NCBI GenBank assembly: GCA_964424705.1
Contig: CAYRKB010000001.1
Location: 22,575 to 86,574, forward strand
Source: an uncultured Victivallales bacterium
Lineage (GTDB): Bacteria > Verrucomicrobiota > Kiritimatiellia > UBA8416 > CAYRKB01
Reading direction: 5' to 3'
DNA length: 64,000 nucleotides
Each line of letters starts with the position of its first letter. The stretch's first letter is position 1. The notes beneath the pieces were generated by a model. The model was not told where the DNA came from. It saw only the letters and a list, made by a program, of their open reading frames with translations, and ran no database searches. Positions 3,224 through 60,820 of this stretch are shown in pieces. A program made the position numbers and the translations under genes.

Positions 3224-5624
3224 ACATCCGTTTCTAGTCATCCACGGCTTCTGTCAACGCCGCCGGCGTCTACTCCTAGCCCTTTCCGCTGCCGCGACGC
3301 TGGCCGCTGGCGTCTCGCTGTGGTTCGTCCAATACGACAAGACGCTGGACGCCATGCTGCCGGCTCGCAGTTCGATTCCCCGCGTGATGGAGGTCCTCCG
3401 CGACGCCCACCTTTCGAACAAGATCGCCATCAGCGTCGGCTCTGCCGTGCCCGGAGCCTCAGTGCACGATATCATGGCCGCGGCCGACGGCCTGGCAGCG
3501 GCGCTTGGGCAATCGCCGCTGATCATCCAGGCCACGTCGGATTTTTCGCGCCTGGCGTCTATTGACGACATGGCCCTGTTCTTCCAGGCGGCGCCGGAAC
3601 TTCTGGGAGAGCAGGACCTCCTTGCGATGGCGGCCGATGTGACGCCGGATGGGGTCCGTAGCGTGCTAAGGCGGCGATATGTGCAGCTCATGAAGCCCGA
3701 GGGAAACTTCCTCGCGTCCTCGATACGTGCCGACCCTTTGGGGTTCCGCTGGCGGGCCGTGGAGCGGCTGCAGTCCGTGATGTCGTCCTTCGGGTACGAT
3801 GTCAACATGGTCGAGGGTCACCTCGTAAGCCGCGACGGACGGCGCTGCATGATTGTGGCCGAAACCCCGATTGCGCCAACCGACAATGTCGGCTCCCTGG
3901 CGTTGTCGAAGGTGCTGGCCGAGAAGGTCAAGATGCTGCCGAAAGGCTTCACGGCGGATACGATCTGCGGGCACATGCATACGGTGAGCAACGAGCGCAC
4001 GATCAAGCGGGACATTGCGTTGACCAACACGGTGGCGACCCTCGCATTCCTTGCGCTCTTCTTCGTGGTGTTCCGTGACAAGTGGGCGGTGTTCACGCTT
4101 CTTGCCATTCCTGTCTCGGCGTCGTTGATCGCGATTCCCCTGACGGCCTTGGTCTTTGGAAGGGTCGCCCTGATCGTGGTCGGCCTGGGTTCGGTGATTG
4201 CGGGCGTGTCCGTCGACTATGCCATGCATGTGTACGTCGCGTCGCGCCGAAGCGGGAACGCGGCGGAAGCCCTTATGCATGTCGCGCTGCCAGTTTCGGT
4301 GGGCGCCCTGACGACCTGCGGAATGTTCGTGGCGTTTATCTCGTCCAGCGTGCCCGGCTACCACCAGCTGGCGGTCTTCTCGATCCTGTCGATCGTCCTT
4401 GCGCTCGTCTTCGCGCTCGCGGTGTTTCCTCACTTTGTGAGGCGCGGGGAAGTCGGGCTGGCCAGCGGCGGGGAGAAGGGCGTCGTGGCGCCACGGCTAG
4501 CCCCTCGCGGCGTGGTTACGGCGTGGGTCGGGCTGTTCGCGCTCTGCCTCTGGGGGTGCCGCGGCCTCGGATTCGATTCCAATATCCTCCGGATGGACGG
4601 CACGGAGGAGAGTATTCTGGCCGGGGAAAACCGTTTCTACGCGGCGTGGGGACAGGGGGATACGAACCAGGCGATTGTCGTGTGTGAGGGCCCGACGGCC
4701 GAGGCCGCGCAGCGGGCGAGCGACGAGGTGTATCGGGCTGTGCGGGCTACGGGCGTTGAGGCGGGGGTCGCCACTTTGTCCGCGGTGTGGCCGTCGCAGC
4801 GTACGCGGGAGGAGAATCTCGCGCGGTGGCAGTCGTTCTGGGACGCTGAGCGCGTCGCGCAGCTGCGGCAGACGCTGATGCAGGAAGGCGAGGGGTTTGG
4901 TTTCGCCACAAATGCCTTCGATCCATTCTTCGAGGGCCTGGCTGGACCCGCTGGCGCGCATGCGGGAGACGTTACGAACGGGCTGCTCACCCGGCTGCGG
5001 GGGCAATTCTTGCAGCAAAAAGGCGGCGGCTGGCAATGTCTCTCGTTCTACCCGGATACCCCGGCCATGCAGGCGCTCGTAAAAGCCAGGGACGGCAACG
5101 GGCATCGGGTATTCATGGTTTCTCCGCAGGCGGTGGCGGGCGACCTGTCGCGTATCTACGCCTCGGAGATTCTCCGCATTTCGACCGTCGCCGTCACAAT
5201 TATCCTGCTCGTGACTTTTGCCCTCGTGCGGAATGTGCGAGTGGTAGCAATCTCTCTGATCCCGTCTCTAACCGCGGTGGTGGCCCTCCTCGCGGCTATG
5301 GCTGTGAGCGGACGGATGGTGAATATGGCGAACGTCTTCGCAGGGATTGTGGTCTTCGGCCTCAGCCTCGACTACGGGTTCATTATGATGCACTCGTACC
5401 GGCATCGCCTGACCGATTCTGCCAGGGTCTCCGTGCACGTTTCAGCGATCACCACGGTGATCGGCACGGCGGCCCTGCTTTTCGCGCACCACCCTGTGCT
5501 GTTCTCGCTTGGGATCACGCTGACGATCGGCATTCTGGCCGGTTACGTGACGGCGATGTGGGTGGTGCCGGCGCTCTACAGCCTGTGGGTGGAGCCGCGC
5601 GGCGGGGAGGGGGCCCCGTCGTGA
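3216..5624 (+). CDS. MMPL/RND-superfamily exporter (HpnN-like lipid transporter)
   Basis: 802 aa with two blocks of ~6 TM helices and two large periplasmic loops, the typical MMPL topology. The GTG start overlaps the LolA-like stop by 8 nt, indicating translational coupling. Confidence 0.85.
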   Translation: MSRHPFLVIHGFCQRRRRLLLALSAAATLAAGVSLWFVQYDKTLDAMLPARSSIPRVMEVLRDAHLSNKIAISVGSAVPGASVHDIMAAADGLAAALGQSPLIIQATSDFSRLASIDDMALFFQAAPELLGEQDLLAMAADVTPDGVRSVLRRRYVQLMKPEGNFLASSIRADPLGFRWRAVERLQSVMSSFGYDVNMVEGHLVSRDGRRCMIVAETPIAPTDNVGSLALSKVLAEKVKMLPKGFTADTICGHMHTVSNERTIKRDIALTNTVATLAFLALFFVVFRDKWAVFTLLAIPVSASLIAIPLTALVFGRVALIVVGLGSVIAGVSVDYAMHVYVASRRSGNAAEALMHVALPVSVGALTTCGMFVAFISSSVPGYHQLAVFSILSIVLALVFALAVFPHFVRRGEVGLASGGEKGVVAPRLAPRGVVTAWVGLFALCLWGCRGLGFDSNILRMDGTEESILAGENRFYAAWGQGDTNQAIVVCEGPTAEAAQRASDEVYRAVRATGVEAGVATLSAVWPSQRTREENLARWQSFWDAERVAQLRQTLMQEGEGFGFATNAFDPFFEGLAGPAGAHAGDVTNGLLTRLRGQFLQQKGGGWQCLSFYPDTPAMQALVKARDGNGHRVFMVSPQAVAGDLSRIYASEILRISTVAVTIILLVTFALVRNVRVVAISLIPSLTAVVALLAAMAVSGRMVNMANVFAGIVVFGLSLDYGFIMMHSYRHRLTDSARVSVHVSAITTVIGTAALLFAHHPVLFSLGITLTIGILAGYVTAMWVVPALYSLWVEPRGGEGAPS

Positions 5625-6316
5625 TGAATGCGCTAAGCGGAAAGATGTTGCGCCTTTGGGTGCCCGTCATCCTCGGTGCCTGCCTAGGGGCGGGCTGCGC
5701 GACGGTTCGCTGGGAGTCGCCGCAGCGTGCCGGGTCGGCCCCTGAGCCGGCGGCGGCCCTGCAGGCCATGTCCCGGGGTGCGCCGGTGCGGCTGCAGGTT
5801 GTCAACTCCGTCCTGTTCGAGTATCGCGGGCGGAAGATGTCGGGCCTCGGTTTTCTGGACGTTGACGTGGCGACTCGCTCCTTCGGATTGGCCTGCATGG
5901 CGCAGTCCGGCGTAACGCTGTTTGAAGTGACGGGCACCAATGGAGCCGTGCGGTGCCATTTCGCGATGCCGGCTCTGGCCGGGCGCGGAGAGGCTTTCGC
6001 CAAGGTTCTCGGGCGTGACGTGGAGCGCATGTTCTTCGATGTGCAGCCGCCGGCCGGCGCGGCGGTTGGATTCGAGCCAGGGGCCGCTGTGTTTTCCGAC
6101 GTCAGGGGCTCCGGGCGGGTGGAATGGATTGCGGGCTGTGACGGCGGCCTGTTGGAGAAGCGCTACTACGAAGGCAGGCGGCTGGTTTGCAGGGTAGGGT
6201 ACTACGCGACCGTCGGACACTCAGGGCGCAGGATACCGGGGCGGGTCTGCCTGCAGAATCTCAAGGATGGGTACGGTCTCACCATCACAATGCGGGAGAT
6301 CCGGCGATGCGACTGA
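5624..6316 (+). CDS. lipoprotein of unknown function (lipobox LGAGC)
   Basis: ATG overlaps the MMPL TGA (TGATGA). The N-terminus MNALSGKMLRLWVPVILGACLGAGCAT is a signal peptide ending in a lipobox Cys. This gene completes the LolA-like/MMPL/lipoprotein triad seen in lipid-export loci. The track ORF 5036..6316 is an upstream in-frame extension. Confidence 0.6.
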   Translation: MNALSGKMLRLWVPVILGACLGAGCATVRWESPQRAGSAPEPAAALQAMSRGAPVRLQVVNSVLFEYRGRKMSGLGFLDVDVATRSFGLACMAQSGVTLFEVTGTNGAVRCHFAMPALAGRGEAFAKVLGRDVERMFFDVQPPAGAAVGFEPGAAVFSDVRGSGRVEWIAGCDGGLLEKRYYEGRRLVCRVGYYATVGHSGRRIPGRVCLQNLKDGYGLTITMREIRRCD

Positions 6317-8761: not shown

Positions 8762-9364
8762 GTGAATGTGCGACGCATGTTGCTGGCGGCTGTCGCTCTG
8801 GCGTTCCTGCTGCCCGGCGCCGCGCCGGCGCGCGAGGGACGTTGGACCGTCTACAAAGACTGCCAGCTTCAGGAGAACCCGTCGAACGACGGGGACAGCT
8901 TCCACGTCAAGACGGCGCGGTACAAGTACCTGTTCCGGCTCTATTTCGCGGATTGTCCTGAAACCAGCCGGCAGGTGCCCGAGCGCGTCAAGGAGCAGGC
9001 GGCGCACTTCGGCGTTCCGGAGGATACGGTGCTCAAGGCCGGGAAGCGGGCGCGGGAGTTCACGCGCCAGTTCCTGGCGCGGGGATTCACCGTTTCCACG
9101 AAGAAGGAGGACGCGCGCGGCGCGAGCCGGGTGAGACGCTACTATGCGGTGGTGGAGGCCGGGGGCAAGGATCTTGCCGAGGAGCTGGTGGCGCATGGGC
9201 TGGCGCGGGCCTACGGCGAGGGCACCAACCTGCCGGACGGCGGGGACGAGCATCGCTGGCGCGGAAAGCTGGCGCGCGCGGAGAAGAGCGCCAGGGCCCA
9301 GCACCTGGGGATCTGGCGCAACGATCGCGAGCCGGCTGAGCCGAAGGCCGGCGGGGAGCCGTGA
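8762..9364 (+). CDS. secreted thermonuclease (staphylococcal-nuclease/SNase-like) family protein
   Basis: The signal peptide is MLLAAVALAFLLPGAAPA. The SNase-like core includes ...KYLFRLYFADCPE...GLARAYGEG...HLGIWRN. Start is GTG at 8762 or ATG at 8777. Confidence 0.8.
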   Translation: MNVRRMLLAAVALAFLLPGAAPAREGRWTVYKDCQLQENPSNDGDSFHVKTARYKYLFRLYFADCPETSRQVPERVKEQAAHFGVPEDTVLKAGKRAREFTRQFLARGFTVSTKKEDARGASRVRRYYAVVEAGGKDLAEELVAHGLARAYGEGTNLPDGGDEHRWRGKLARAEKSARAQHLGIWRNDREPAEPKAGGEP

Positions 9365-9365
9365 C

Positions 9366-9968
9366 ATGGATCGACCGGGCATGGAGCTGCGGCTTCCGGC
9401 GTGGGTGGGCGAGGTGCTCTCCCGCTGCGGAGACACCTATTTCTCGCAGGAGGACCGCATGGGGCTGGTCCTCCGCCTGGCGGAGGAGAACGCGCGGCGG
9501 GCGACCGGCGGGCCTTTTGCCGCCGCCGTGTTTGAGGTGGAGAGCGGGCGACTCGTGGCGCCCGGGGTGAACATGGTTGTGCCCGCGCGCTGCTCAAGCG
9601 CGCACGCGGAGATTGTCGCGCTGTCGGCTGCGCAGCAGCGTCTCGGCACGTTCGACCTGGGCGCGGCAGGCCTGCCGGCGCACGAGCTGGTCGCCAGCGC
9701 CGAGCCCTGCGCCATGTGCATGGGGGCGGTGCCGTGGTCGGGCGTGCGGCGGCTGGTGTGCGGCGCGCGGGGCGACGATGTCTGCTGCATCGGCTTTGAC
9801 GAGGGCGCGAAGCCGGCCGACTGGGTCCGGGCTCTGAAATCGCGCGGCATCGAGGTGCGGCGCGACGTCCTTCGCGCGGAGGCCGCCGCCATCCTGCAGC
9901 GCTACGCGGCGGCGGGCGGGCAGATCTACAATGGCAGCCGGGCCGGGGCTGCGGGCGCGCCCGAGTAG
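9366..9968 (+). CDS. CMP/dCMP-deaminase-fold nucleoside deaminase (TadA/GuaD-like)
   Basis: The zinc-ligand motifs HAE(IVAL) ... PCAMCMGA are present. ATG at 9366 lies 2 nt after the thermonuclease stop. The first part of track ORF 9144..9968 is an out-of-frame overlap with the upstream gene. Confidence 0.75.
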   Translation: MDRPGMELRLPAWVGEVLSRCGDTYFSQEDRMGLVLRLAEENARRATGGPFAAAVFEVESGRLVAPGVNMVVPARCSSAHAEIVALSAAQQRLGTFDLGAAGLPAHELVASAEPCAMCMGAVPWSGVRRLVCGARGDDVCCIGFDEGAKPADWVRALKSRGIEVRRDVLRAEAAAILQRYAAAGGQIYNGSRAGAAGAPE

Positions 9969-19721: not shown

Positions 19722-20687
19722 TTATTCGAGGCCAACGGATTGCCGGGCGTTCTTTAGGGTCTTGGCGGCTTCCGCGCGGGCGCGCTCCGCGCCCTGGCTG
19801 AGCACGGACTCGACATACCCGAGATTGTTGGCAAGTTCGGTCCGACGGCGGCGGAACTCTGCAAAGTAAGCTTGGATCGCCGCGAGCAGCGCCTTCTTGG
19901 CGTCGCCGTAGCCGGTGCCCCCGCGGCGGTAGCGCTCTTCCATGTCGCGGAGGTCGGCCTCGCCGGCGACAAGCCGGTAAAGCGCCATGATGTTGCACTT
20001 GGCCGGATCCTTCGGGGACTCCATCGGCGTGCTGTCCGTGACGATCCGCATCACGCGTGCCTTCGTTTCCTTTTCGTCGCCGAAGATCTCGATGTGGTTG
20101 TTGTAAGACTTCGACATCTTCTGCCCGTCGATCCCCGGCACGACCGCCACGGCGTCGCGGATCGAGGGCTCCGGCACCGTGAAGATGCCGGGGCCGTACT
20201 GGTTATTGAACTTGATCGCCAGGTCGCGCGCCACTTCGACATGCTGCTTCTGGTCGCGGCCGACGGGCACTACGTTGGACTGGTAGGCCAGGATATCCGC
20301 CGCCATCAGGACGGGATAGGCAAACAGCCCGTGGCTTGCCCCCAGGCCGCGCGCGGTCTTGTCCTTGTACGAATGGCAGCGCTCCAGAAGTCCCATGGGC
20401 GTGATGGTCGAGAGAATCCAGGTCAGTTCCGTGACCTCCGGGACGTCGCTTTGCCGGAAGAAAACCGTCCGCTTCGGGTCCAGGCCGCAGGCCAGAAAGT
20501 CCAGTGCGACGTCGAGCGTCGCCGCGCGCAGCGCAGCCGCATCCGTGACTGTGGTCAGCGCGTGATAGTTCGCGATGAAGAGGTAGGCGTCGCCCTGCAT
20601 TTGCAGTTCGAGGGCCGGCTTCATCATGCCGAAATAGTTTCCGAGGTGCAACTTGCCCGAGGGCTGTATACCCGATAGGATTCGCAT
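19722..20687 (-). CDS. trpS: tryptophan--tRNA ligase
   Basis: HIGH-type (GKLHLGNY) and KMSKS motifs are present; length is 321 aa. The ATG at 20687 was verified by frame counting. The track ORF continues upstream into the repeat element. Confidence 0.9.
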   Translation of the reverse strand: MRILSGIQPSGKLHLGNYFGMMKPALELQMQGDAYLFIANYHALTTVTDAAALRAATLDVALDFLACGLDPKRTVFFRQSDVPEVTELTWILSTITPMGLLERCHSYKDKTARGLGASHGLFAYPVLMAADILAYQSNVVPVGRDQKQHVEVARDLAIKFNNQYGPGIFTVPEPSIRDAVAVVPGIDGQKMSKSYNNHIEIFGDEKETKARVMRIVTDSTPMESPKDPAKCNIMALYRLVAGEADLRDMEERYRRGGTGYGDAKKALLAAIQAYFAEFRRRRTELANNLGYVESVLSQGAERARAEAAKTLKNARQSVGLE

Positions 20688-20775
20688 AGCTGTTGACTCC
20701 ACTCCGCTTAGGTGGGGTAACATAGCCAAGACAGTGGGTTTTACAAAGAAAAAGTTCTGCGTGAGATGGCGGGGG

Positions 20776-21070
20776 GCGTATGTGAGTTCCGGAGACCGCC
20801 GCCCGGGGGAGATGCGGCGAAGCTCGGAGCGAACGCGGTGGGGGCACCGCGACTCCAGCGGAACGTCTGATTTCGCTCGTTTCCGTGCTCCTGGAGACGC
20901 GACGCCCTCGTCGCGGGGTGCAAGAGGAGGAGCGAGAGAACGCGGCGGGGTCGCCGCATCTCCAGTCGGAGTTGCCCGTTGTCGCTCCCGGCTTGCTCCT
21001 GGAGATGCCCTCGTCGCGGAGATAAAGAAACGCGCCTGAACGGACACCTCCCCGGAACTCACATGCGCCC
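20776..21070. repeat. MITE-like palindromic repeat element, copy 1 (long variant, ~295 bp) with 20-bp terminal inverted repeats
   Basis: The termini are gcgtATGTGAGTTCCGGag ... ctCCCCGGAACTCACATgcgccc. Internal nested palindromes include ggagatgcggcgac/gtcgccgcatctcc and cgcgacgccctcgtcgcg. A second copy at 59259-59451 is >90% identical. Copy 1 carries a ~110-bp internal duplication or insertion. Confidence 0.7.
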
Positions 21071-21091
21071 GATGGCGGGCGTGTTGAAACG

Positions 21092-24000
21092 GTGTTGAAA
21101 GCTCTTGAAGAGAAGTCCGGTAATAAGTACAAGGGCGCAGGGTACTTCGGAGGCCAACAGGGTCGCATGTTCAAACTCCACGAGTCTCAGGTGAGAAACG
21201 AAGGCGCGGGCCAGCGGTGGCACGTCAAGTTTTCCGAGGACTGTGTTTTCGGCCCCGTCGGCCTTCCGGAGCTGCGCGACTGGGCGGAGCAGGGCCGCAT
21301 CGTAGCGGGCAACCTTTTGTCGCGAGACCGCGAGAGCTGGATGCCTGCCGAGAGTTTGCCTGAGCTCGATATGATGTGGGTCGCCGAACTGGGCGGCCGC
21401 CGTCGGTTCGGGCCGTTCAACCTGGCAACGGTGCCCCTGCTTGTCAAACGAGGCAAAATCAACAGAGCTACGCCGCTGCAGCACTGCAGCACGGGCGAGG
21501 TCCGGTTGGTTTCGTCAGTCCTGGAGAGCGGGGCCAAGCAATTGACGTATTCAATCCCCGCTCCCGTCACCGTGAGAACGGCGGATGTCAAAACGGACGG
21601 TGAGCCACGCTCGAGTGGAGCTGAGAAGGGCGGGCCTGCTGCGCCCGTTGCCGTGAAGAGGATTCAAGACGAAGGATTGCCTGACAGGAATGACCAGGCA
21701 CACAAGGCCCTGCGCAGTGAGCTGTCGGCGTTGCAGGAAAGTGTAGCCCGGGCGAAACAAGAACTTGAGATGGAGCGTGTCCGGGCTGTTGCGCTGGAGT
21801 CCGCCGCCAACCAGAAGCAAGGCCACGCTGCTGACGTCGAGAAGAAGCTAGCCGCGGAGAAAAATCTGCGTGAGGAACAAGCTGACCGCTTGAAGAAGAC
21901 TCAGGCTGAAGCCGCTGCTTTCGCTGCGAAGGCCACGAAGGTTGAAGCCGAGCTGAATCGTGAGCTGAGCGCTGCAACGGAACGCGCGGCTGTCGCAGCG
22001 CGCGAGGTTGCGGCTGAGCGGAGCCGGGCTGCGGCGCTGGAGTCCGCCGCCAACCAGAAGCAAGGCCAAGCTGCTGACATCGAGAAGAAGCTAGCCGCCG
22101 AGAAGAAACAGCGCGAAGAACAAGCTGAGCGCTTGAAGCAGGCGCAGTTTGAAGCCGCTGCTTTTGCTGCGAAGGCCACGAAGGTTGAAGCCGAACTGAA
22201 GCGTGAACTGAGCGCTGCAACGGAACGCGCGGCTGTCGCAGCGCGCGAGGTTGAGGCTGAGCGGAGCCGGGCTGCGGCGCTGGAGGCAGCCGCCAACCAG
22301 AAGCAAGCACATGCCGTAGAGATCGAGAAAAGGCTTGCCGCGGAGATGAAGCTGCGGGAGGACCAGGCTGGCAGAATTGACAAGCTTGAGCGCGAGCTCA
22401 AAGCCCGCGCGGAGGAAGTCGGTCTTGCAGCCGGGCAATTGGATGAGCAGCGGAAAGCACGCGCCGGGCTGGAAGCTCAGATGCGCCGCAGTGAAAGGGA
22501 CCAGGCCGAACGCTCGAAGCAGTCGCAGGCAGAGGCCGTTTCTCTCTCTACAAAGGCCGCGACGCTTGAAGCTGAACTGAAACAAGCGCGGAGCGACGCG
22601 GCGGAGAGTGCTGCTGCTGCCGTCCGTGAAGGTGAAGAACGAATCAGGGCCCACGAAGCCCTGCAGCGCGAGCTGGCGGCCCTGCAGGAGCGTGCAGTCC
22701 AGGCGCGACGAGAGGTTGAGGCTGAGCGGAGCCGGTCCGTTACGTTGGAATACACGGCCAGCCAGAAGGAAGGGCATGCAGCAGAGATTGAGAGTAAACT
22801 CGCCGCCGAGAAGCAGCAGCGCGAAGGGCAGTCTGCGCTATTGAAGGAGGCGCGGGCCAAGGTCAGCGCCGTCGGCGCGAAGGTCGCAGCGCTGGAGAAA
22901 GCATTCGCGGAGGAGAGGCATCTGCACGAAGAGGTAGTCAGAAAATGGCTCGCGAAAGAAGCGGATCTCTCCGGCAGGATCGGCAAACTCGAGCAAGCGC
23001 TCAAGAATAAGGCGGAGGAAGCGGTCCGGGCCGTCGCGCAACTGGTCGAGCAGAAGAATGCGCATGCCGGGCTGGAGGAGCGCGGCCAGAGGCGTGAATT
23101 GGATCTGACGGGGCAGATTGGCCGCCTGACGGCAGAGAACGTGGAGCTACAGGCTGGTGTGCGCCAGAGCGCGGATGAACTGGCGCGAGCCCGGGCCGGT
23201 CTGGCGAGGGCTGCCGAGGCGAGCGTGGAACTTATGCAGCAATACCTTGGCCCGCAGGGAAGCGGCAAACCGACCTGGTACTTGCAGGGCGATGATAAGT
23301 CCGTGTACGGACCGGTTGATCTGTCTGAGCTTTGGGCCTGGGCCTGCCAGAGCCGCATTGGCCCGAAGCATAGCGTGTCGCAGGACAAGAAAAACTGGGT
23401 GATGGCCGAGACGATTCCCGAACTTCACATGGAGTGGATCTGTAAACTCCCGGACGGAGTAGACATCGGCCCGCTCAATCCGTTCGCTTACAGGGATCTC
23501 GTTGCTGATGGATCCGTAGATCCCGGGCAAGTGGTCCAGAGCCGCCTGAGCGGCGAGACGATTGCGGCCGGGGCGCTCGTTAAGGCCACGGAAGGCGGCA
23601 CATTCCTGCGGCGTACGTCAACTGATGCTGACAGGCAGAAGATGAAGGATTTGGAGGCCTGTCTAGCCCAGGCACGACGTGAGCTTGAGGAGGCGAGCGG
23701 CCGTTCCCGTACGCTGGAGGGTGCTATTGGCCAGAAGGAAGGGCAGGTCGCGGGGCTGGAGAAGAATCTCGCGGCGGAGAAGAAGCTGCGCGAGGATTTG
23801 GCAGGCAGGATCGATAAGCTTGAGCGGGCTCTAAAGGACAAGACAGACGAAGCGGGCAGGGCAGCCGCACAGCTGGGCGAGCAGAAGAAGGAGCATGCCG
23901 GACTGGAGATGCGCAGCCAGGTTCAAGAGCTGGAGCTGAAGGGACAGATCGGCCGCCTGACTGATGAGAGTTCCAGGAGAGCCCTGCAACTGGAGACGGA

Positions 24001-24718
24001 GAAGGCCCGGGCTGTTCAGGCGAGCGTGGAACTTATGCAACAATGCCTTGGCCCGCAAGGAAGCGGCACTCCGAGCTGGTATTTGCAGGGCGATGATATG
24101 TCCGTGTATGGCCCGGTTGACTTGCCTCAGCTTTGGGCCTGGGCCTGCCAGAGCCGCATTGGTCCGAAGCACAGCGTGTCGCAGGACAAGAAGAACTGGG
24201 TATTGGCCGAGACCGTTCCCGAACTTCGCATGGAATGGATCTGTAAGCTGCCTGACGGAGCAGACCTGGGCCCGCTCAACCCCTTTGCATTCAGGGATCT
24301 GGTTGCAGATGGGTTCGTAGATCCCGGGCAAGCTGTCCAGAACCACCTGAGTGGCGAGACGATTGCGGCCGGGGAGCTGGTTAAGGCCACTGAGGGCGGA
24401 GCGCTTTTGCGACATTTGGGACCGGGTCCTGACGGACGGGAATGGAAGCAGCGATGTTCCGCAGCTGAAGAACGAGGCAGGCTTGTTGACGAGGAGTTGG
24501 CCAGAGTGGGTAGCCTTTTCGAAGCTGAGAAGGCCCGGCGGCTTCAACTTGAGCATGATCTATTGAGGGCGCTTGAAGAGCTGGCTGGTGCGACGGCCCG
24601 GTTCCAGCTTTCCGTTGAAGCTCAGGGGCAGGGCGGAGCCGTGCCGCCACGGCGTCTGAGTGAGAAGCTTCTTGCCGCAGATCGGGCGGCGCGGGCCCTC
24701 AAGGGAACAAAGGGATAA
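21092..24718 (+). CDS. giant coiled-coil protein with N-terminal and twice-duplicated internal GYF-like (DUF4339) domain pairs
   Basis: The W-x-Y-x-GP-V...EL...W...ELxMEW pattern (WHVKFSEDCVFGPVGLPEL...; WYLQGDDKSVYGPVDLSELWAWA...ELHMEW) recurs three times. Long heptad-rich Ala/Glu/Lys/Arg segments lie between them. The track start is GTG at 21092; an ATG at 21167 (MFKLHES) with an upstream GGAGG is an alternative. Confidence 0.75.
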   Translation: MLKALEEKSGNKYKGAGYFGGQQGRMFKLHESQVRNEGAGQRWHVKFSEDCVFGPVGLPELRDWAEQGRIVAGNLLSRDRESWMPAESLPELDMMWVAELGGRRRFGPFNLATVPLLVKRGKINRATPLQHCSTGEVRLVSSVLESGAKQLTYSIPAPVTVRTADVKTDGEPRSSGAEKGGPAAPVAVKRIQDEGLPDRNDQAHKALRSELSALQESVARAKQELEMERVRAVALESAANQKQGHAADVEKKLAAEKNLREEQADRLKKTQAEAAAFAAKATKVEAELNRELSAATERAAVAAREVAAERSRAAALESAANQKQGQAADIEKKLAAEKKQREEQAERLKQAQFEAAAFAAKATKVEAELKRELSAATERAAVAAREVEAERSRAAALEAAANQKQAHAVEIEKRLAAEMKLREDQAGRIDKLERELKARAEEVGLAAGQLDEQRKARAGLEAQMRRSERDQAERSKQSQAEAVSLSTKAATLEAELKQARSDAAESAAAAVREGEERIRAHEALQRELAALQERAVQARREVEAERSRSVTLEYTASQKEGHAAEIESKLAAEKQQREGQSALLKEARAKVSAVGAKVAALEKAFAEERHLHEEVVRKWLAKEADLSGRIGKLEQALKNKAEEAVRAVAQLVEQKNAHAGLEERGQRRELDLTGQIGRLTAENVELQAGVRQSADELARARAGLARAAEASVELMQQYLGPQGSGKPTWYLQGDDKSVYGPVDLSELWAWACQSRIGPKHSVSQDKKNWVMAETIPELHMEWICKLPDGVDIGPLNPFAYRDLVADGSVDPGQVVQSRLSGETIAAGALVKATEGGTFLRRTSTDADRQKMKDLEACLAQARRELEEASGRSRTLEGAIGQKEGQVAGLEKNLAAEKKLREDLAGRIDKLERALKDKTDEAGRAAAQLGEQKKEHAGLEMRSQVQELELKGQIGRLTDESSRRALQLETEKARAVQASVELMQQCLGPQGSGTPSWYLQGDDMSVYGPVDLPQLWAWACQSRIGPKHSVSQDKKNWVLAETVPELRMEWICKLPDGADLGPLNPFAFRDLVADGFVDPGQAVQNHLSGETIAAGELVKATEGGALLRHLGPGPDGREWKQRCSAAEERGRLVDEELARVGSLFEAEKARRLQLEHDLLRALEELAGATARFQLSVEAQGQGGAVPPRRLSEKLLAADRAARALKGTKG
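21791..22400. repeat. intragenic 243-bp (81-codon) tandem repeat, ~2.5 copies, first two copies near-identical
   Basis: The unit gcgctggagtccgccgccaaccagaagcaagg... restarts at 21791, 22034 and 22277. It encodes LESAANQKQGxAADxEKKLAAEK...AAFAAKATKVEAELxRELSAATERAAVAAREVxAERSRAAA. Confidence 0.8.
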
Positions 24719-26883: not shown

Positions 26884-27069
26884 GGGCGATTCCTTTCTAA
26901 AGAATTTGTACGCATGGTAAGTGGCTCGGCACGGGAATACAATCTGAAAGGGCCTTGTGAAACGGCATTCCGGGATCACCGGGTGTTTCTTCATGGCGCT
27001 ACCGGGTTGAAGGATTGCTTACTGATGGTTGTGCGGGGGCCAACAGCGCGGTCAATTCGACTTACTAAT

Positions 27070-27205
27070 CCGGCCATTGAATAGTAGGCGATCCCTGAGA
27101 ATGGGGCTCCCTGAGCCGTTGCGGCGCAGGAGCCGAAATTCAGGCTCCTGCCGCGCAAGGCGGCAGGGAGCCGTTCCTTCGTCAACGAAACTATTCAATG
27201 GCCGG
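27070..27205. repeat. 136-bp triple-nested inverted-repeat element (candidate structured RNA or MITE-like element)
   Basis: The outer perfect 16-bp inverted repeat is ccggccattgaatagt ... actattcaatggccgg. Inside lie ggctccctg...cagggagcc and a central hairpin gcaggagcc-gaaattca-ggctcctgc. It sits in a ~700-bp non-coding gap upstream of pdxJ. Confidence 0.5.
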
Positions 27206-27594
27206 GGTAATAAGGCGGGTCGACTACGCGTAACCGGTGAAGTGCGGGACCAAGCCGGAACGATGCAGTCTTGGAATTGGAGAAGCCACGCCCGCCTGCA
27301 GCGCTGTACGGGCGCGCAGCGACAGCACTGCGGGCAGAGTGTCGCGGATAGACGCGGCTCAAAGAGGCCTGCTGCAGCGCGCAGGGCCTCGCCCTCGGGC
27401 GAGATGCAAACGGTATTGATCGTTGTCTTGGACCCGCGTCTCCCGCTGCGCATCCGTGGCGCCGTGCAATCGAAAGGCCGCCTTTCTTCTGGATATTGAA
27501 TTGCGGCCTGCCTAGTATTGCTCATCGACGGCGTCCAACGGGTCTGCCGGAGGGTGTGCGGCCCGAGGCTGCAAAACGCTGAAGAGGGGCGAGT

Positions 27595-35451: not shown

Positions 35452-37353
35452 CTATTCTTCCGCCGCTCTCCGTGCGCGGGCTCGCACTGTGCCGATGACA
35501 ATGCGCGGGGGCGGCGGCGCCTCCTGCGGCGAGGACGAGGGAGCGCCCGGGATCATGTGCCGATCGATGGCCGCCGCGGCGTGGTCCTTGATGGTCAGCG
35601 CCCGCCGGAACTCCGCGAGTTCCTTCTCCAGCCGCAGAATCGTGTTGCGGAGCTCAAGGGCCAGGGGGTGCGCGAGCTCCGCGGCCGTAAGCTTTGTCCC
35701 CGTGCGGCAGTTCGTGACGGCTGCGCCCGGCTGCGCGGAGCCGTCCTTCACGAGATGGGAAACGGCGAGCAGGTTTACGGGGCCATACCCGGTGCCGTCG
35801 ACGAGCTGGATGCTCCACTCCATGCAAAGCTCCGGGACCTCGCGCGCCTTGCGCCACGGCGCCCCGTCCCGCGCAACCTCGGTGTCGGGCGCGATGCGAC
35901 AGTCAGCGGCCCACGCATACATCTCGGTGGTTGAGACCGGGCCATAGACAGATTCGCCGAACTTGGCTGTCCATCGCGCGGGCTCGGCAATCGCGCGCAG
36001 AGACGAGAGGTCCCGCGCGAAATCGGCGGCGGCGCGCTCCTGAGCGGCGCGCACTTCACGGACTTCAGCGCGCAGCGCGCCGTTTTCCCGCTGCCGTGCG
36101 GCGGCATCCCGGTCGGACTCGTCTGCCCGGTGTCTTGCCGCCCGCAGAGCCTTCTCCGTTTCGGCGCGCTGCTGCTCCGCAGCCTCAAGATTCAGGGACA
36201 GACGCTCGCCCTGCGCGGCGCCCGCAGCCTGCTCCTGCCGCAGCGCTTCGGCGGCGCGTTGTGCCCCGGCGAGTTCGCTTTGCAGGGCGGCCGCGCGGGA
36301 CAGCGAGTCTGTCTGCCGGGCTTCGAACTCCGCGCCGGCCTGGCGCAGCTGGCGGATTTCCGCAGCGCCCTTCTGCGCCTGGATGGCAAACTCGTCTTTC
36401 GCCTGGATCAGGCACTTCTTGAGATTCTCGACGTCCTGCCGCAGCGCTTCAGAGGCGCGCTGCGTCCCGGCGAATTCGCTCTGCAGGGCTGCCATGCGGG
36501 CCTGCATGTCCGCATGCCGGGTTTCAAGGCTCTCGTTGAGAAGCTGAAGCGCGCGCGCCTCCGCAGCGCCTTTTTGGGCCTGTTCAGCGGCATGGCCATT
36601 CGCCTGATCCATGCTCCTTTTATGATTTGTCGCCGCCTTCTTGAGCTCCTCGTTCTCGCGGCGGAGGTTGGCGAGCGCCTTGGTGGCCTTGGCATTCGCA
36701 TCCGTGGCGACTTCGCTGTCGGCCGTATTCTTTTTCTGGCGCTGCAGTTCGATGCGGGCGGCTTCAAGGAGCAGGTTGGCGGTGTGCAGGTCGTCCTGCG
36801 CTTTGTCGAGGCGCCCGGCGGATAGGGCGAGCTCGTCCGCGTGGCGGGCCTGCGCTCGCTCCAGTTCGCTGAGGCGCGCGTGCAGGGCCTTGACTTCCTC
36901 CTGCGCAGCGGCGGGTTGGCCGGTCGCAGTGGCCGGGTCGGACGGCGGCAGCGCGAAACTCCCCTGGGAAGAAGACGCTTCGAGACCGGCCGGGTTGACG
37001 AACGACGCGACCGCCACCGTGCGGCCGGTCAACCGATGCGTCAGCGTGCAGGCGGGATCGAGGAGACCGTGCTGGATAAGGTGCGGCACGGCGAGCAGAT
37101 TGAATGGTCCGAATTCCTTGCCGTCGACCCGGCGGCCGAGCCACTCCATTTTCAGGTCCGGCAGGTTTGTGGCCGGCATCCACAGCTTGCGGTCGTGCGA
37201 CACCTCGTCGCCCCCGGCCACGCGCCCGGCCTCGGCCCATTGCGCGAGGACGAGGTAGGAGACCGGCCCGTACACGTTGGCGCCCGGCGTGCGAAGGTAG
37301 AACTGAAGCTCGTTCAGGACCGCCGCGCTAGGTCTGTAATCCTTCTCTGACAT
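35452..37353 (-). CDS. coiled-coil protein with N- and C-terminal GYF-like (DUF4339) domain pairs; paralogue of 21092..24718
   Basis: The N-terminus is ...VYGPVSYLVLAQWAEAGRV...LPDLKMEW...GPFNLLAVPHLIQHG. The C-terminus is ...VYGPVSTTEMYAWAADCRIAP...ELCMEW...GPVNLLAVSHLVKDG. The middle contains ~60-aa degenerate coiled-coil repeats (KGAAEARALQ...). An ATG at 37353 was verified. Confidence 0.75.
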   Translation of the reverse strand: MSEKDYRPSAAVLNELQFYLRTPGANVYGPVSYLVLAQWAEAGRVAGGDEVSHDRKLWMPATNLPDLKMEWLGRRVDGKEFGPFNLLAVPHLIQHGLLDPACTLTHRLTGRTVAVASFVNPAGLEASSSQGSFALPPSDPATATGQPAAAQEEVKALHARLSELERAQARHADELALSAGRLDKAQDDLHTANLLLEAARIELQRQKKNTADSEVATDANAKATKALANLRRENEELKKAATNHKRSMDQANGHAAEQAQKGAAEARALQLLNESLETRHADMQARMAALQSEFAGTQRASEALRQDVENLKKCLIQAKDEFAIQAQKGAAEIRQLRQAGAEFEARQTDSLSRAAALQSELAGAQRAAEALRQEQAAGAAQGERLSLNLEAAEQQRAETEKALRAARHRADESDRDAAARQRENGALRAEVREVRAAQERAAADFARDLSSLRAIAEPARWTAKFGESVYGPVSTTEMYAWAADCRIAPDTEVARDGAPWRKAREVPELCMEWSIQLVDGTGYGPVNLLAVSHLVKDGSAQPGAAVTNCRTGTKLTAAELAHPLALELRNTILRLEKELAEFRRALTIKDHAAAAIDRHMIPGAPSSSPQEAPPPPRIVIGTVRARARRAAEE

Positions 37354-57004: not shown

Positions 57005-59110
57005 ATGATCGATTTCACAGCGGGGTTGAATCCCGAACAACGCAGGGCGGTGCTGACGACCGATGGCCCCCTGTTGGTGCTCGCGGGCGCCGGGACCGGG
57101 AAGACGCGCGTCATTACCCACCGCATCGCCCACATGCTGGCGAACGGCGTCCCGGCGCGCTCGATTCTGGCCATGACCTTCACCAATCGGGCCGCCGGCG
57201 AAATGAAGGAGCGCATTGCCAAGCTGGCGTCGAAGGCGCACGTCGAGGAGCTGACCGTCGGTACGTTTCACTCGTTTTGCGTGAAAGCCCTGCGCCAGTT
57301 CGGAGAAACGGTCGGCATTCGGAAAAACTTCGCAATCTGTGATGCCGACGACCAGCTGACGGCGATGAAGAAGGCCCTTCGGGAGTTGCAGATTCCGGAA
57401 AAGGCGATCCCCCCCAGGCTGGTGCTCAGCCGCGTGTCGCTGCTCAAGAATCGGCTCGCCGGCCCCGAGGCGGGCCTCGGCTCGAGCGACCCGCAGGAGG
57501 CCGAGCTCAGCCGCGTGTACCAGAAGTATGATGCCGGCCTGCGGGCCAGCGGCGTGCTGGACTTCGACGACCTGCTCCTGTTCATGGTCAAACTGCTCCA
57601 GGAGAAGGCGCCCCTGGCCCAGTTTCAGAAGCGCTACCGGTACCTGCTGATTGATGAGTATCAGGATACCAACGGCCCGCAGTACGAGATTGTCAAGCAG
57701 ATCGGCGGGGCGCATCGCAACGTGTGCGTGGTGGGGGATGACGATCAATCGATCTACGGCTGGCGCGGGGCGGACATCAGCAAGATCCTCAACTTCGAAA
57801 AGGACTTTCCCGGCGCCGCGGTCGTCCGCCTGGAGACCAACTATCGTTCCACGGCGCAGATTATCGCCGGCGCCAACGCGGTCATCCGCAATAACACGGC
57901 GCGGCATGAGAAGGCGCTTCGTTCGGCCCTGGGCGACGGGCAGGCGATCGTCGTCAGGCGGCTGCCCGATGAAGAGACCGAGGCGCTGTACGTCGTGGAG
58001 GACATCCTTCAGCGCGCGCGGGAGAACCGGCTGCCGCTGGGCACTTTTGCGGTACTCTTTCGAACCGCCATGCAGCCGCGGATGTTTGAAATGCGGCTGC
58101 GGGAGAAAGGCGTGCCCTACAACCTGGTGGGCGGCATGTCCTTCTTCGACCGCAAAGAGGTGCGCGACGTGCTGTCGTACCTCAAGCTCGTGGCGAACCC
58201 CGAGGATGAGCTTTCGCTGCTGCGGGTCATCAACACTCCTCCCCGGGGGATCGGGGACACGACGGTGCAGAAGATGCTGGCCGTCGCGGCCGAGCGGAGT
58301 ATGTCGTTGGCCGAGGTGATCCGGCGCGGCGACGAGTTTCCGGCGCTGCCGGCGCCGGCGCCGGCGCTGTCGGCGGCGCGGAAGTTTCTCGGCGCGCTGG
58401 CCGCGCTGAGCGGCCTCCAGGCCGGTCCGGAGCTCGTGAAGCTCGTCAGGCAGGTGGTCAGCGCGGTGGACTACCAGGAGGAAATCAAGCGCAACTATCC
58501 TGATCCTGCCGTGCGTGCCAAGCGCTGGGACGCCGTTAACGAGATCATGAACATGGCGGAGGTGCACGCGCGCTACCGGCCGCAGGCCACGCTGAACAGC
58601 TTCCTTGAGGACTTGACCCTCAACGCCAACGACGACAGCGATAAGGAGCCGTCGGGCGACGACAAGCTGACTCTCATGACGCTGCATTCCGCCAAGGGGC
58701 TGGAGTTTGGCGAGGTGTACCTCGTGGGCATGGAGGAGGGCCTTCTGCCGCACGCGAGATCGATCGAGGACGGGAATGTTGCGGAGGAGCGGCGGCTGGC
58801 CTATGTCGGCATTACGCGCGCCAGACAGCGGCTGACCGTCACCTACGTCGCCAGCCGGGCGCGCTATGGTCAGCGCGAGGCCGTGATGCCGTCGCGCTTC
58901 CTGTACGAGATGCTCGGCCGGCCGCCCCCGCCCGAGATCCGTGAAAGCGCTTTCCGGCCGGCCGCCGCGCCACCGGTCGTCGCCGGCAAGAAGAAACAGG
59001 CCAAGCGCAAGCGCGCCAAGAAGAGCTCGCCACGCCCTACGGCGACGGCCTCAAGCAGGTCCTGCGCGTCTGCCCGTTCAATGCTGAGCACCGCAACAGC
59101 TCCGCCGTAA
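57005..59110 (+). CDS. pcrA: ATP-dependent DNA helicase, UvrD/PcrA/Rep family
   Basis: Helicase motif I is AGAGTGKTRVITHRIAHML. Motifs II (DEYQDTN), III and the C-terminal LTLMTLHSAKGLEF...VGITRA are present. Confidence 0.9.
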   Translation: MIDFTAGLNPEQRRAVLTTDGPLLVLAGAGTGKTRVITHRIAHMLANGVPARSILAMTFTNRAAGEMKERIAKLASKAHVEELTVGTFHSFCVKALRQFGETVGIRKNFAICDADDQLTAMKKALRELQIPEKAIPPRLVLSRVSLLKNRLAGPEAGLGSSDPQEAELSRVYQKYDAGLRASGVLDFDDLLLFMVKLLQEKAPLAQFQKRYRYLLIDEYQDTNGPQYEIVKQIGGAHRNVCVVGDDDQSIYGWRGADISKILNFEKDFPGAAVVRLETNYRSTAQIIAGANAVIRNNTARHEKALRSALGDGQAIVVRRLPDEETEALYVVEDILQRARENRLPLGTFAVLFRTAMQPRMFEMRLREKGVPYNLVGGMSFFDRKEVRDVLSYLKLVANPEDELSLLRVINTPPRGIGDTTVQKMLAVAAERSMSLAEVIRRGDEFPALPAPAPALSAARKFLGALAALSGLQAGPELVKLVRQVVSAVDYQEEIKRNYPDPAVRAKRWDAVNEIMNMAEVHARYRPQATLNSFLEDLTLNANDDSDKEPSGDDKLTLMTLHSAKGLEFGEVYLVGMEEGLLPHARSIEDGNVAEERRLAYVGITRARQRLTVTYVASRARYGQREAVMPSRFLYEMLGRPPPPEIRESAFRPAAAPPVVAGKKKQAKRKRAKKSSPRPTATASSRSCASARSMLSTATAPP

Positions 59111-59258
59111 TCATCATGCGCGCCAGCCTTCGGTCGATGGACAAAGTAAGTTAGCCTTTGGCTGAGTTACTGCGCCTGGGGGGCGCGCTTACTAGTTCCG
59201 AAGTATCCGCGGACAGCGGTCGCTGTCCAGTTGTCCTGGGGACATGAGATATTGTTGG

Positions 59259-59451
59259 GCGCATGTGAGTTCCGGGGATCGCCGCCCGGGGGAGATGCGG
59301 CGAAGCTCGGAGAGAACGCGGCGGGGTCGCCGCATCTCCAGTCGGAGTTGCCCGTTGTCGCTCCCGGCTTGCTTCTGGAGTCGCGACGCCCTCGTCGCGG
59401 AGATGAAGAAACGCGCCTGAACGGACAACTCCCCGGAACTCACATGCGCCC
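59259..59451. repeat. MITE-like palindromic repeat element, copy 2 (short variant, 193 bp)
   Basis: It has the same 20-bp terminal inverted repeats (GCGCATGTGAGTTCCGGGGA ... TCCCCGGAACTCACATGCGC) and internal palindromes as the copy at 20776-21070. Track ORFs 59192..59455(-) and 59231..59503(+) over it are artefacts. Confidence 0.7.
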
Positions 59452-59914
59452 TCAACTTTTCACTGCTCGCCCAAATCTACGGATAAGGAACGAAAGTGGG
59501 TGAGACGGCGGCGGAGTGGGCTCGGGGCTCCGAATTAAGGCGCGAAGGCGACGTTGATGGTGCGGGAGAGGGGAAAGAGCGAATGCGGGCAAAGGGACGA
59601 CATTCAATGTTCATTTTCCCCGCGTCGCATCCGCCGCCAGGCCGGCGGCTTCAGCGGGAGGGGCCCTGGAAATAGAAGATAAACAATCCGGGGAGACTGG
59701 TTGCGTGCAGTAAAGGAAGCGCTGACGTGTAACTCAAGGGCTGGCGCTATGCCATCTCAGCAACATGGCGCCTGTGAACCACGACGGGCGCGCCCTGCTG
59801 TTGGTATTGGAGCCTATATATGCCAACGACTCATCGATGAGTAACTTTGGATTTCGCGTATACATAGTTCCCGCTGATCTGAAAGAACGTGTGTCAGCGC
59901 GCAGCCTTCGGGAT

Positions 59915-60820
59915 CTACCCGGCTTCGTTCACGACGCGGACTCCAAGATCGCGCAATGTGCGAATCCATGAAGTCACTGTGGCGGGCGAGGGGGAAATGA
60001 TGGTGCCCAGCGCGTCTTTCGTGCCGAACCTCTGGTGCTTGCCAGTACCCAGCGGGTGATAGGGCATGACCTCAAACCCGAGAAGCTGTGGCAGGCCGGC
60101 GGACAGGCGCGCAATGGCCTGGAAATGATCCTCCCGATCGTTGAGCCCCGGGATGATGGGGAGGCGGACCAAAACGGCGGCGCCTGCATCGTGGAGGAAC
60201 CGGAGGTTGTTCAGGATCTGTTCGTTGGGGGCGCCTGTCAGCTCCCGGTGGCGTTCCGGGTCGCAGTCCTTGATATCGTAGAGGAAGCGGTCCACGTCGG
60301 GCAGGATGCGCCGGATCGCGTCCTGGGAGACCTGGCCGCAGGTCTCGACGGCGCAATCGAGGCCCGCCTGCTTTGCCGCGCGGAGCAGCGCGGCCGCGAA
60401 CTCCGGCTGCATCAGCGGCTCGCCGCCGGACAGCGTCATCCCCCCGCCCGAGGTGTCGTAGAAAGGCTTATCCCGCAGGACTTCGGTAAGCACTTCGGGC
60501 ACGGTCGCGTCCCTGCCGACCAGATCCAGTGCGCGGGCGTAGCACTCCGCGGTGCATGAGCCGCACACGACGCAGGCCTCGCGGTCCAGCGCGTGGTGTT
60601 CGCCGTCCATCCGGTGGGCGTTGCGCTTGCAGACGCGAAAGCAGTAGCCGCAGCCGATGCACCGGTCGGGCAGAAAGGCGAGCGCGGGCCCCGCGTCAAG
60701 TCCTTCCGGGTTGTGGCACCAGAGGCAGCGCAGCGTGCAGCCTTTCAGGAATACCGTCGTACGGATGCCGGGCCCGTCGTGCACGCTGAATCGCTGGATT
60801 TCGAAGATCCGTCCGGTCAT
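59915..60820 (-). CDS. glycyl-radical enzyme activating protein (radical SAM, PflA family)
   Basis: The motif CTLRCLWCHNPE (CxxxCxxC) and a ferredoxin-like insert (CIGCGYC...CVVCGSC) are typical of GRE activases other than PflA itself. Confidence 0.85.
   Translation of the reverse strand: MTGRIFEIQRFSVHDGPGIRTTVFLKGCTLRCLWCHNPEGLDAGPALAFLPDRCIGCGYCFRVCKRNAHRMDGEHHALDREACVVCGSCTAECYARALDLVGRDATVPEVLTEVLRDKPFYDTSGGGMTLSGGEPLMQPEFAAALLRAAKQAGLDCAVETCGQVSQDAIRRILPDVDRFLYDIKDCDPERHRELTGAPNEQILNNLRFLHDAGAAVLVRLPIIPGLNDREDHFQAIARLSAGLPQLLGFEVMPYHPLGTGKHQRFGTKDALGTIISPSPATVTSWIRTLRDLGVRVVNEAG

Follow-up and report, generated by a model that had tools for sequence, protein, structure and literature searches.

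A probable family of miniature inverted-repeat transposable elements with REP-like internal hairpins in an uncultured Victivallales bacterium

We analysed a 64,000-nucleotide stretch of DNA from an uncultured Victivallales bacterium (assembly GCA_964424705.1, contig CAYRKB010000001.1, positions 22,575 to 86,574; hereafter the window), in which a palindromic repeat occurs in two copies of different length. With a probability that we put at about 85%, this repeat is a miniature inverted-repeat transposable element (MITE), non-coding, 195 nt long with a 297-300-nt subfamily, and not mobile by itself. The element is small, encodes no protein, ends in terminal inverted repeats (TIRs), is flanked by target-site duplications (TSDs) of fixed length and variable sequence, and exists as dispersed copies with unrelated flanks. 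Because TSDs are the signature of transposase-mediated insertion, we regard it as a genuine MITE rather than a local duplication or a repeat of the repetitive extragenic palindromic (REP) or bacterial interspersed mosaic element (BIME) type. A non-autonomous mobile element was one reading offered by the original prediction, an earlier note made from the letters of the window; it is supported here by at least eight sites with DNA and by 9-bp TSDs at four of six complete copies.

Boundaries, dispersed copies and target-site duplications

A whole-window repeat search combined with pairwise alignment placed copy 1 at positions 20774-21070 (297 nt), and the same search placed copy 2 at 59257-59451 (195 nt). 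Both copies end in a 22-bp TIR, the family 22-mer GGGCGCATGTGAGTTCCGGGGA. The repeat search gives 100% complementarity for the inverted arms of copy 2 (59257-59278/59430-59451) and 91% for those of copy 1 (20774-20795/21049-21070), whose two mismatches both lie in the left arm. At up to 3 mismatches the 22-mer has four occurrences in the window, compared with none in 100 shuffles, and the repeats are far beyond chance. The original prediction had rightly recognised two copies with length variants and terminal inverted repeats, but each copy begins 2 nt earlier than it proposed and the repeats measure 22 bp, not 20 bp. Similarity between copies ends exactly at the terminal repeats, and the 22-mer is conserved in nearly all TIR arms across all copies for which DNA is available. 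The layout is left TIR (22 nt), left subterminal region (31 nt), one module (M) in the short form or two (M' then M) in the long form, right subterminal region and right TIR, as follows:

20765-20773, no strand: left TSD of copy 1, GATGGCGGG; same 9-mer at 21071-21079 (9/9)
20774-20795, plus strand: left TIR of copy 1, GGGCGTATGTGAGTTCCGGAGA; 2 mismatches to the family 22-mer
20796-20826, plus strand: left subterminal region of copy 1; common to the short form (alignments)
20827-20933, plus strand: extra module M', which defines the long subfamily; not in short copies; hairpin units within
20934-21048, plus strand: module M and right subterminal region of copy 1; M is 97% identical to M of copy 2
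21049-21070, minus strand: right TIR of copy 1; exact 22-mer on the minus strand
21071-21079, no strand: right TSD of copy 1, GATGGCGGG; equals the left 9-mer
59257-59278, plus strand: left TIR of copy 2; exact 22-mer
59279-59309, plus strand: left subterminal region of copy 2 (alignment)
59310-59429, plus strand: module M and right subterminal region of copy 2; two hairpin units in inverted orientation, separated by a 33-nt spacer
59430-59451, minus strand: right TIR of copy 2; exact 22-mer; no TSD in the flanks

The element lacks stop codons in several frames, and its concatenated six-frame translation was used as a protein query. This query returned six spurious open reading frames (ORFs; P0001-P0006) lying across other copies, none with a Pfam domain, and from their contigs six additional copies were recovered with DNA:

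L093, 9656-9850: short copy, complete
L093, about 8915-9183: long copy, truncated
L094, 1-106: partial copy, at the contig end
L094, 447-641: short copy, complete
L094, 4093-4392: long copy, complete
L102, 10146-10340: short copy, complete

Two further loci, L095 and L096, represent the same place as L094, and three more sites (P0002, P0005 and P0006) are known as protein only. In total, and including both window copies, there are at least eight sites with DNA and unrelated flanks, plus the three protein-only sites. All eight are intergenic, between divergent, convergent and co-directional gene pairs and in both orientations. The copies fall into two length classes, short (195 nt) and long (297-300 nt), within each of which they are 96-99% identical. 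Loci L097 and L102 belong to a single contig of 296,846 bp from Joint Genome Institute (JGI) sample 3300044987; since L097 matches the window with 99.97% identity over 14 kb, this contig bears at least three copies. The Ga04851xx sample series comes from the Lake Mendota water column (PMC13053139). As a guide to taxonomy, tetranucleotide correlation had no discriminating power, with controls as high as 0.93-0.95. Short-read assemblies point the same way. Logan contigs encoding an identical TrpS (five assemblies, L088-L092) are all about 1.3 kb long; one, L091, ends before the element, and the other four reach it and stop at window position 20826, the point where long and short forms diverge. 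As assemblers stop at repeats, the element behaves as one.

Gene callers report 'hypothetical proteins' of 156-222 aa across copies (L093 9295-9963, L094 3837-4499, L102 10001-10471). These ORFs are called because the element is GC-rich and free of stops in several frames, which the 64% GC of this Lake Mendota bacterium explains; P0001-P0006 are annotation artefacts. Of the three copies known from the 297-kb contig, two (window 59257-59451 and L102 10146-10340) lie just downstream of UvrD-family helicase genes in the same contig orientation. The two helicases differ (701 aa and 678 aa), and the proximity is probably a coincidence.

The left and right flanking 9-mers of the six complete copies compare as follows:

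Window copy 1: GATGGCGGG / GATGGCGGG, 9/9
L093 short copy: CCGCCCTAT / CCGCCCTAT, 9/9
L094 long copy: CACAGGCAA / CACAGGCAA, 9/9
L102 short copy: GGTCTCGCC / AGTCTCGCC, 8/9
Window copy 2: GATATTGTT / TCAACTTTT, 4/9, no TSD
L094 short copy: GCACAGAAT / TTCACAATA, 1/9, no TSD

Perfect 9-bp direct repeats, different in sequence from site to site, flank three of the six, and the chance of a 9/9 match is about 4e-6 per copy. Together with the abrupt end of similarity at the TIRs, these site-specific repeats are the footprint of insertion by a 9-bp staggered cut. The pentamer CACAG is common to three flanks in L094, namely the right flank of the partial copy (GCACAGGAT, 107-115), the left flank of the short copy (GCACAGAAT, 438-446) and the TSD of the long copy (CACAGGCAA, 4084-4092), and could reflect a target preference or chance (about 1%, a rough estimate).

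We propose that a transposase encoded elsewhere in the genome would bind both 22-bp TIRs and move the element into a new site by making cuts with a 9-bp stagger, the repair of which would leave a 9-bp direct repeat on either side. The enzyme would be a DDE-type transposase of a family making 9-bp duplications. At the two complete copies that lack a TSD, later recombination between copies, flank decay or a flanking deletion may have removed it. Owing to its one (short form) or two (long form) modules of REP-like hairpins, the whole element would fold back on itself as a long branched hairpin, in the form of single-stranded DNA or, should it be transcribed, of RNA. The prokaryotic Mutator-like insertion sequences (IS) IS256, ISLre2 and ISKra4 have 18-39-bp inverted repeats with a terminal C and generate 8-9-bp direct repeats (PMC3942029). 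The ends of the window element, with 22-bp repeats finishing in ...GCGCCC-3' and a 9-bp TSD, match these features, which are not exclusive to that superfamily. The IS903 group of IS5 and IS1 also make 9-bp duplications and begin with GG. As several IS families fit a 9-bp TSD and ends of this kind, the mobilising family is not assignable.

Several results weigh against the MITE interpretation. No duplication is found at two of the six complete copies, window copy 2 included. Among the 45 window ORFs, Pfam detected housekeeping genes and no transposase domain, and the large unannotated window ORFs gave no clue to a transposase or to the lineage against NCBIfam; neither the window nor the fetched loci hold an autonomous or longer element with the same terminal repeats. 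As to copy number per genome, the 16-nt repeat core gave 87 single chance matches in unrelated taxa when run against a genome collection, none of them real by BLAST, a 20-nt repeat pattern had 0 matches in JGI metagenome contigs and viral contigs, and the 195-nt element had no match among the PLSDB plasmids. No empty site was recovered either. The sole relative with DNA, L101 (84% identical across trpS), is rearranged upstream of that gene: homology stops 17 nt short of the element, and the gene has a different upstream neighbour. The empty site of copy 1 can be reconstructed as ...GCGTGAGATGGCGGGCGTGTTG...

Modular interior, hairpin units and alternative explanations

In pairwise alignment the long window copy equals the short one plus a 107-nt block at 20827-20933. 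The extra block of about 110 bp described in the original prediction therefore exists; its description as an internal duplication needs qualification, as the insert is only 69-73% identical to the adjacent module M and so is not a recent duplication. M' is 100% identical between window copy 1 and the long copy of L094 and 90% identical in that of L093, where it is a mosaic of M-like and M'-like parts. Long copies stand at three separate sites, and because two of these have their own perfect TSDs the long form is mobile as a unit; rather than a duplication peculiar to copy 1, it is an old subfamily with transpositions of its own.

Within each module two units stand in inverted orientation, their tags facing inward. 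Read on the strand with the G-rich loop, a unit is 26 nt long and consists of an 8-nt arm, an RGGK loop, a second 8-nt arm and the tag CTCCAG (variant CCCCA). The units of the window are:

20833-20858, plus strand: M' unit, copy 1
20891-20916, minus strand: M' unit, copy 1
20940-20965, plus strand: M unit, copy 1 (the second M unit of this copy is damaged by a 5-nt deletion around 21004)
59316-59341, plus strand: M unit, copy 2, ACGCGGCG GGGT CGCCGCAT CTCCAG
59375-59400, minus strand: M unit, copy 2, CCGCGACG AGGG CGTCGCGA CTCCAG

A metagenome scan with the best-conserved internal hairpin as pattern (CTGGAG-N-CGCGACGCCCTCGTCGCGG) matched 31 stretches from soil, peat and freshwater (L103-L133), representing about 24 distinct sites. 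The unit found there is exactly CCGCGACG-AGGG-CGTCGCGG-CTCCAG (for instance at L108 260-322, L111 82-139 and L126 1034-1100). The 31 stretches share nothing else with the MITE: BLAST covers only 25-43 nt at the motif, and the flanks are all different. About half of the metagenome units are paired with an inverted one at a distance of 12-25 nt, tags pointing outward, and these partners have different yet complementary stems and a CTCCAG or CCCCA tail. Over 14 distinct units, both members have changed in six of the eight stem pairs, and a one-sided G-U change is seen in none, although the count is inflated as the units were selected for pairing. The lack of wobble pairs fits a palindrome maintained at the DNA level better than an RNA-only constraint. 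In a control of 624 kb of unrelated genomic loci there were two such hairpins, neither followed by the tag; about 134 kb from the lineage with the MITE showed no units outside MITE copies. Literature string searches returned no mention of the repeat and hairpin sequences.

In two related contigs a hairpin doublet lies in frame in pheT (L123 1655-4102, minus strand, and L122 1147-2085, minus strand; full-length gene), where it encodes ...AAL TGAATPSSR...ARGRAGS INISAPNECPFY.... The segment is about as long as the normal variable linker of E. coli PheT, so it need not be an insertion. At L110, about 6100-6160, a doublet lies at the extreme 3' end of a ribosomal protein L3-like gene, judged by eye from the translation, with the next gene directly after it. 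At L111 (about 60-200) and L121 (about 1500-1640) the doublet lies at the centre of a more extended palindrome (GGTCTTTTGTTTTG ... CAAAACAAAAGACC), so that the same hairpins appear inside other, different palindromic elements of other genomes. Loci L107 and L132 contain a 346-nt tandem duplication that includes a hairpin unit (L107 1107-1485).

A GTAG-tagged family of REP/REPIN-like sequences, GTAGAGCCCGCTTTACGCGGG, is present in the spacers between neighbouring MITE copies as inverted pairs with a 16-nt spacer (L093 88-108, 236-256, 9205-9290 and 17214-17290; L094 223-279). It has six exact arms in 17 kb of L093 and none in the 64-kb window even at 3 mismatches; because the family is present in the one and absent from the other, L093 may belong to another genome in which the MITE is also present. 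Between two MITE copies, L093 also carries a run of CACTCAA/CGCTCAA-like heptamer repeats (9430-9520).

The nested palindromes noticed earlier are real, as all folds are more stable than shuffled sequence, with z-scores between -4.5 and -8.1; for the short copy the difference is large on either strand:

Short copy, RNA, plus strand: -117.8 kcal/mol, z -6.2
Short copy, RNA, minus strand: -118.4 kcal/mol, z -8.1
Long copy, RNA, plus strand: -155.5 kcal/mol, z -4.5
Short copy, DNA parameters, plus strand: -66.9 kcal/mol, z -6.8

The terminal repeats form the closing stem in every fold, and RNAalifold predicts a module-long hairpin.

Such folding (z of -6 to -8), along with compensatory changes between M and M' and among the hairpin units, is what would be expected if the copies were structured non-coding RNA genes whose apparent TIRs are the closing stem of the RNA. 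We judge this improbable: TSDs flank the copies, whose orientation with respect to the adjacent genes varies; folding is as good on one strand as on the other; a consensus scan found no promoter-like site inside either copy; Rfam 15 gave no match in the window at gathering thresholds and only noise over both copies at E<=1; and the stem changes of the units are all full Watson-Crick swaps without G-U intermediates, as a DNA-level palindrome would have. About as improbable is that the whole element is a repeat of the REP, BIME or REPIN type, spread by a REP-associated tyrosine transposase (RAYT, of the HUH class) acting on single-stranded hairpins; a REP/BIME-like repeat was the other reading of the original prediction. 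The grain of truth in it is the interior, where covarying hairpin units with a conserved unpaired tag form inverted pairs like REP dimers, and a true GTAG-tagged REP family adjoins copies in L093 and L094. The element as a whole, however, is bounded by 22-bp TIRs and 9-bp duplications of variable sequence, and we know of no description of REP or REPIN insertion producing these together. In the lineage that bears the MITE, moreover, the units are confined to its copies, no Y1 transposase domain was found among the window ORFs scanned, and the tag is CTGGAG, not the GTAG or CGTC used in the published classification (PMC3733652). Least plausible of all is a local or segmental duplication without mobility. 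It would agree with the presence of only two copies within the 64-kb window, and the original prediction had proposed that two copies alone, devoid of TSDs, would suggest it; what was found are at least eight unrelated-flank sites with DNA and three protein-only sites, TSDs at four of six complete copies that differ from site to site, and similarity stopping exactly at the terminal repeats. We consider this explanation refuted.

The origin of M' is a narrower question within the MITE interpretation. M and M' align collinearly from end to end, spacer and tail included, and meet in head-to-tail order at a repeated GAG[A/C]GAAC junction, which appears to favour an ancient tandem duplication over a separate insertion. 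The alternative, that M' derives from a REPIN-like hairpin doublet inserted independently into the MITE, draws on the divergence of M' from M in copies otherwise 96-99% alike, on the free-standing doublets of other genomes and on the documented occurrence of REP dimers inside longer palindromes (PMC3733652). The mosaic M' of L093 also speaks against it, and a free-standing M-type doublet, with tags inward and that spacer, was found in none of the 31 metagenome stretches; we hold independent insertion to be the less likely course, though one that carries some weight.

Genomic setting of the window copies

Pfam supports the neighbours originally assigned to both copies. Copy 1 lies between the divergent trpS (19722-20687, minus strand; Pfam tRNA-synt_1b) and a giant repeat-rich gene on the plus strand, in which a GYF domain was found (1208 aa, from 21092 or 21167); the in-frame ATG at 21167, preceded by GGAGG, is the likelier start. 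Copy 2 lies between the convergent 3' ends of a UvrD-type helicase gene (57005-59110, plus strand) and a radical-SAM glycyl-radical activase gene (59915-60820, minus strand), after which comes the glycyl-radical enzyme gene.

A TTGTAA-16-TATGTT motif upstream of trpS (20716-20745, minus strand), which includes a -35-like hexamer and is kept in the relative L101 (about 4270-4300), is likely the trpS promoter. Copy 1 with its TSD starts about 20 nt upstream of this motif and, as read from the sequence, lies upstream of the TTGAAA/TAATAA-like motifs that precede the GYF-domain gene. Copy 1 thus appears to sit between two divergent promoters rather than inside either, and both window copies appear to occupy permissive spots, one between divergent promoters and the other between convergent gene ends. 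Promoter and terminator scans around both copies gave nothing above shuffled expectation. Transcribed Correia elements are cut by RNase III, and by analogy the element could have regulatory effects of the kind demonstrated for Correia or BOX elements (PMC3049150); that the copies act on neighbouring genes, as a leader structure, a 3' end stabiliser or an RNase target, is conjecture.

Other features of the window stand apart from the MITE. In the 805-nt spacer between helicase and activase genes the remainder (59452-59914) contains no convincing gene, only ORFs of 42-59 aa, none of them called on L097. Assemblies break there, two Logan contigs ending at 59562 and one JGI contig at 59905, and none at the MITE; strain heterogeneity or another feature may be responsible. 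The giant GYF_2 gene (21092-24718) contains 243-nt tandem repeat units (21758-22388 and beyond), and a second GYF_2 protein, with its own 201-nt internal repeat, is encoded at 35455-37353 on the minus strand. Bordering an ORF without a family match is a single-copy imperfect palindrome of 160 nt (27058-27217), whose 40-nt arms occupy 27046-27085 and 27190-27229; its self-complementarity is about 70%, and none of the fetched loci shares it.

Relation to known repeat families

As a class the family is ordinary, and as a family it appears to be undescribed. Bacterial MITEs are small, non-coding and highly base-paired, have TIRs and TSDs, and are multi-copy and mostly intergenic (PMC3049150). The window element shares with MITEs such as Correia of Neisseria and RUP of Streptococcus pneumoniae its size, TIRs, TSDs, pairing, multiple copies and intergenic siting, but it is GC-rich rather than AT-rich. 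Correia elements, which also have length variants, carry 26-bp terminal repeats and a TA duplication, whereas the window element has 22-bp repeats of other sequence and a 9-bp duplication. The PLSDB plasmid search and the literature string searches revealed no sequence similarity to any described MITE family. Compared with IS256, ISLre2 and ISKra4, the element is alike in repeat length, terminal C and TSD, and differs in having no transposase gene associated with it. It extends the list of well-defined bacterial MITEs by one from an uncultured lineage, and its 9-bp TSDs point to a transposase. In practical terms, the family accounts for assembly breaks in intergenic regions of this organism and explains the 'hypothetical proteins' of about 200 aa called across its copies, which should be removed from annotation; it also offers a strain-level marker for the repeatedly sampled Lake Mendota population.

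The modular organisation recalls BOX of S. pneumoniae (boxA - boxB x n - boxC), which likewise combines constant ends with a variable number of modules; BOX internal modules fold largely independently of the ends (PMC3049150). The window element follows a BOX-like pattern of left end, one or two modules and right end, but its sequence is unrelated, the two modules of the long form differ greatly from each other, and both length classes are propagated whole, while in BOX the module number varies at a fixed locus.

The closest parallel to the interior is with REP, BIME and REPIN sequences. REPs have an 8-9-bp stem, a 4-5-nt loop, an unpaired tag and a CCA-containing tail, are frequently found as inverted dimers and occasionally lie within genes or longer palindromes (PMC3733652). 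The geometry of the internal units matches this description: they have an 8-bp GC-rich stem, a 4-nt loop, an unpaired tag, a CCA-containing tail and inverted pairing, and are, in the same way, sometimes found in genes or longer palindromes. They differ in the tag, which is CTGGAG (variant TGGGG; CTCCAG on the G-loop strand) with no GTAG or CGTC before the 5' arm, and in that, within this lineage, they occur only as passengers in a MITE bounded by TIRs and TSDs. Tentatively, and with more doubt than confidence, we suggest that the CTGGAG-tagged 26-nt hairpin may constitute an undescribed third REP-like class beside GTAG and CGTC, dispersed as inverted doublets, some of them in frame in genes, among numerous bacteria of soil, peat and freshwater; the window element would then be a chimera, a MITE of the TIR/TSD type with one or two doublets as cargo, and in this lineage the hairpins would propagate only on a DDE-mobilised vehicle. 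Such a chimera, if real, would link two normally separate kinds of miniature mobile DNA. What makes the family less ordinary is thus its core of REP-like hairpin doublets, which seem to belong to a widely scattered family outside the GTAG and CGTC groups; the main interest for follow-up lies in this REP-like unit, conserved base for base in unrelated contexts across many metagenomes and fitting neither REP superfamily.

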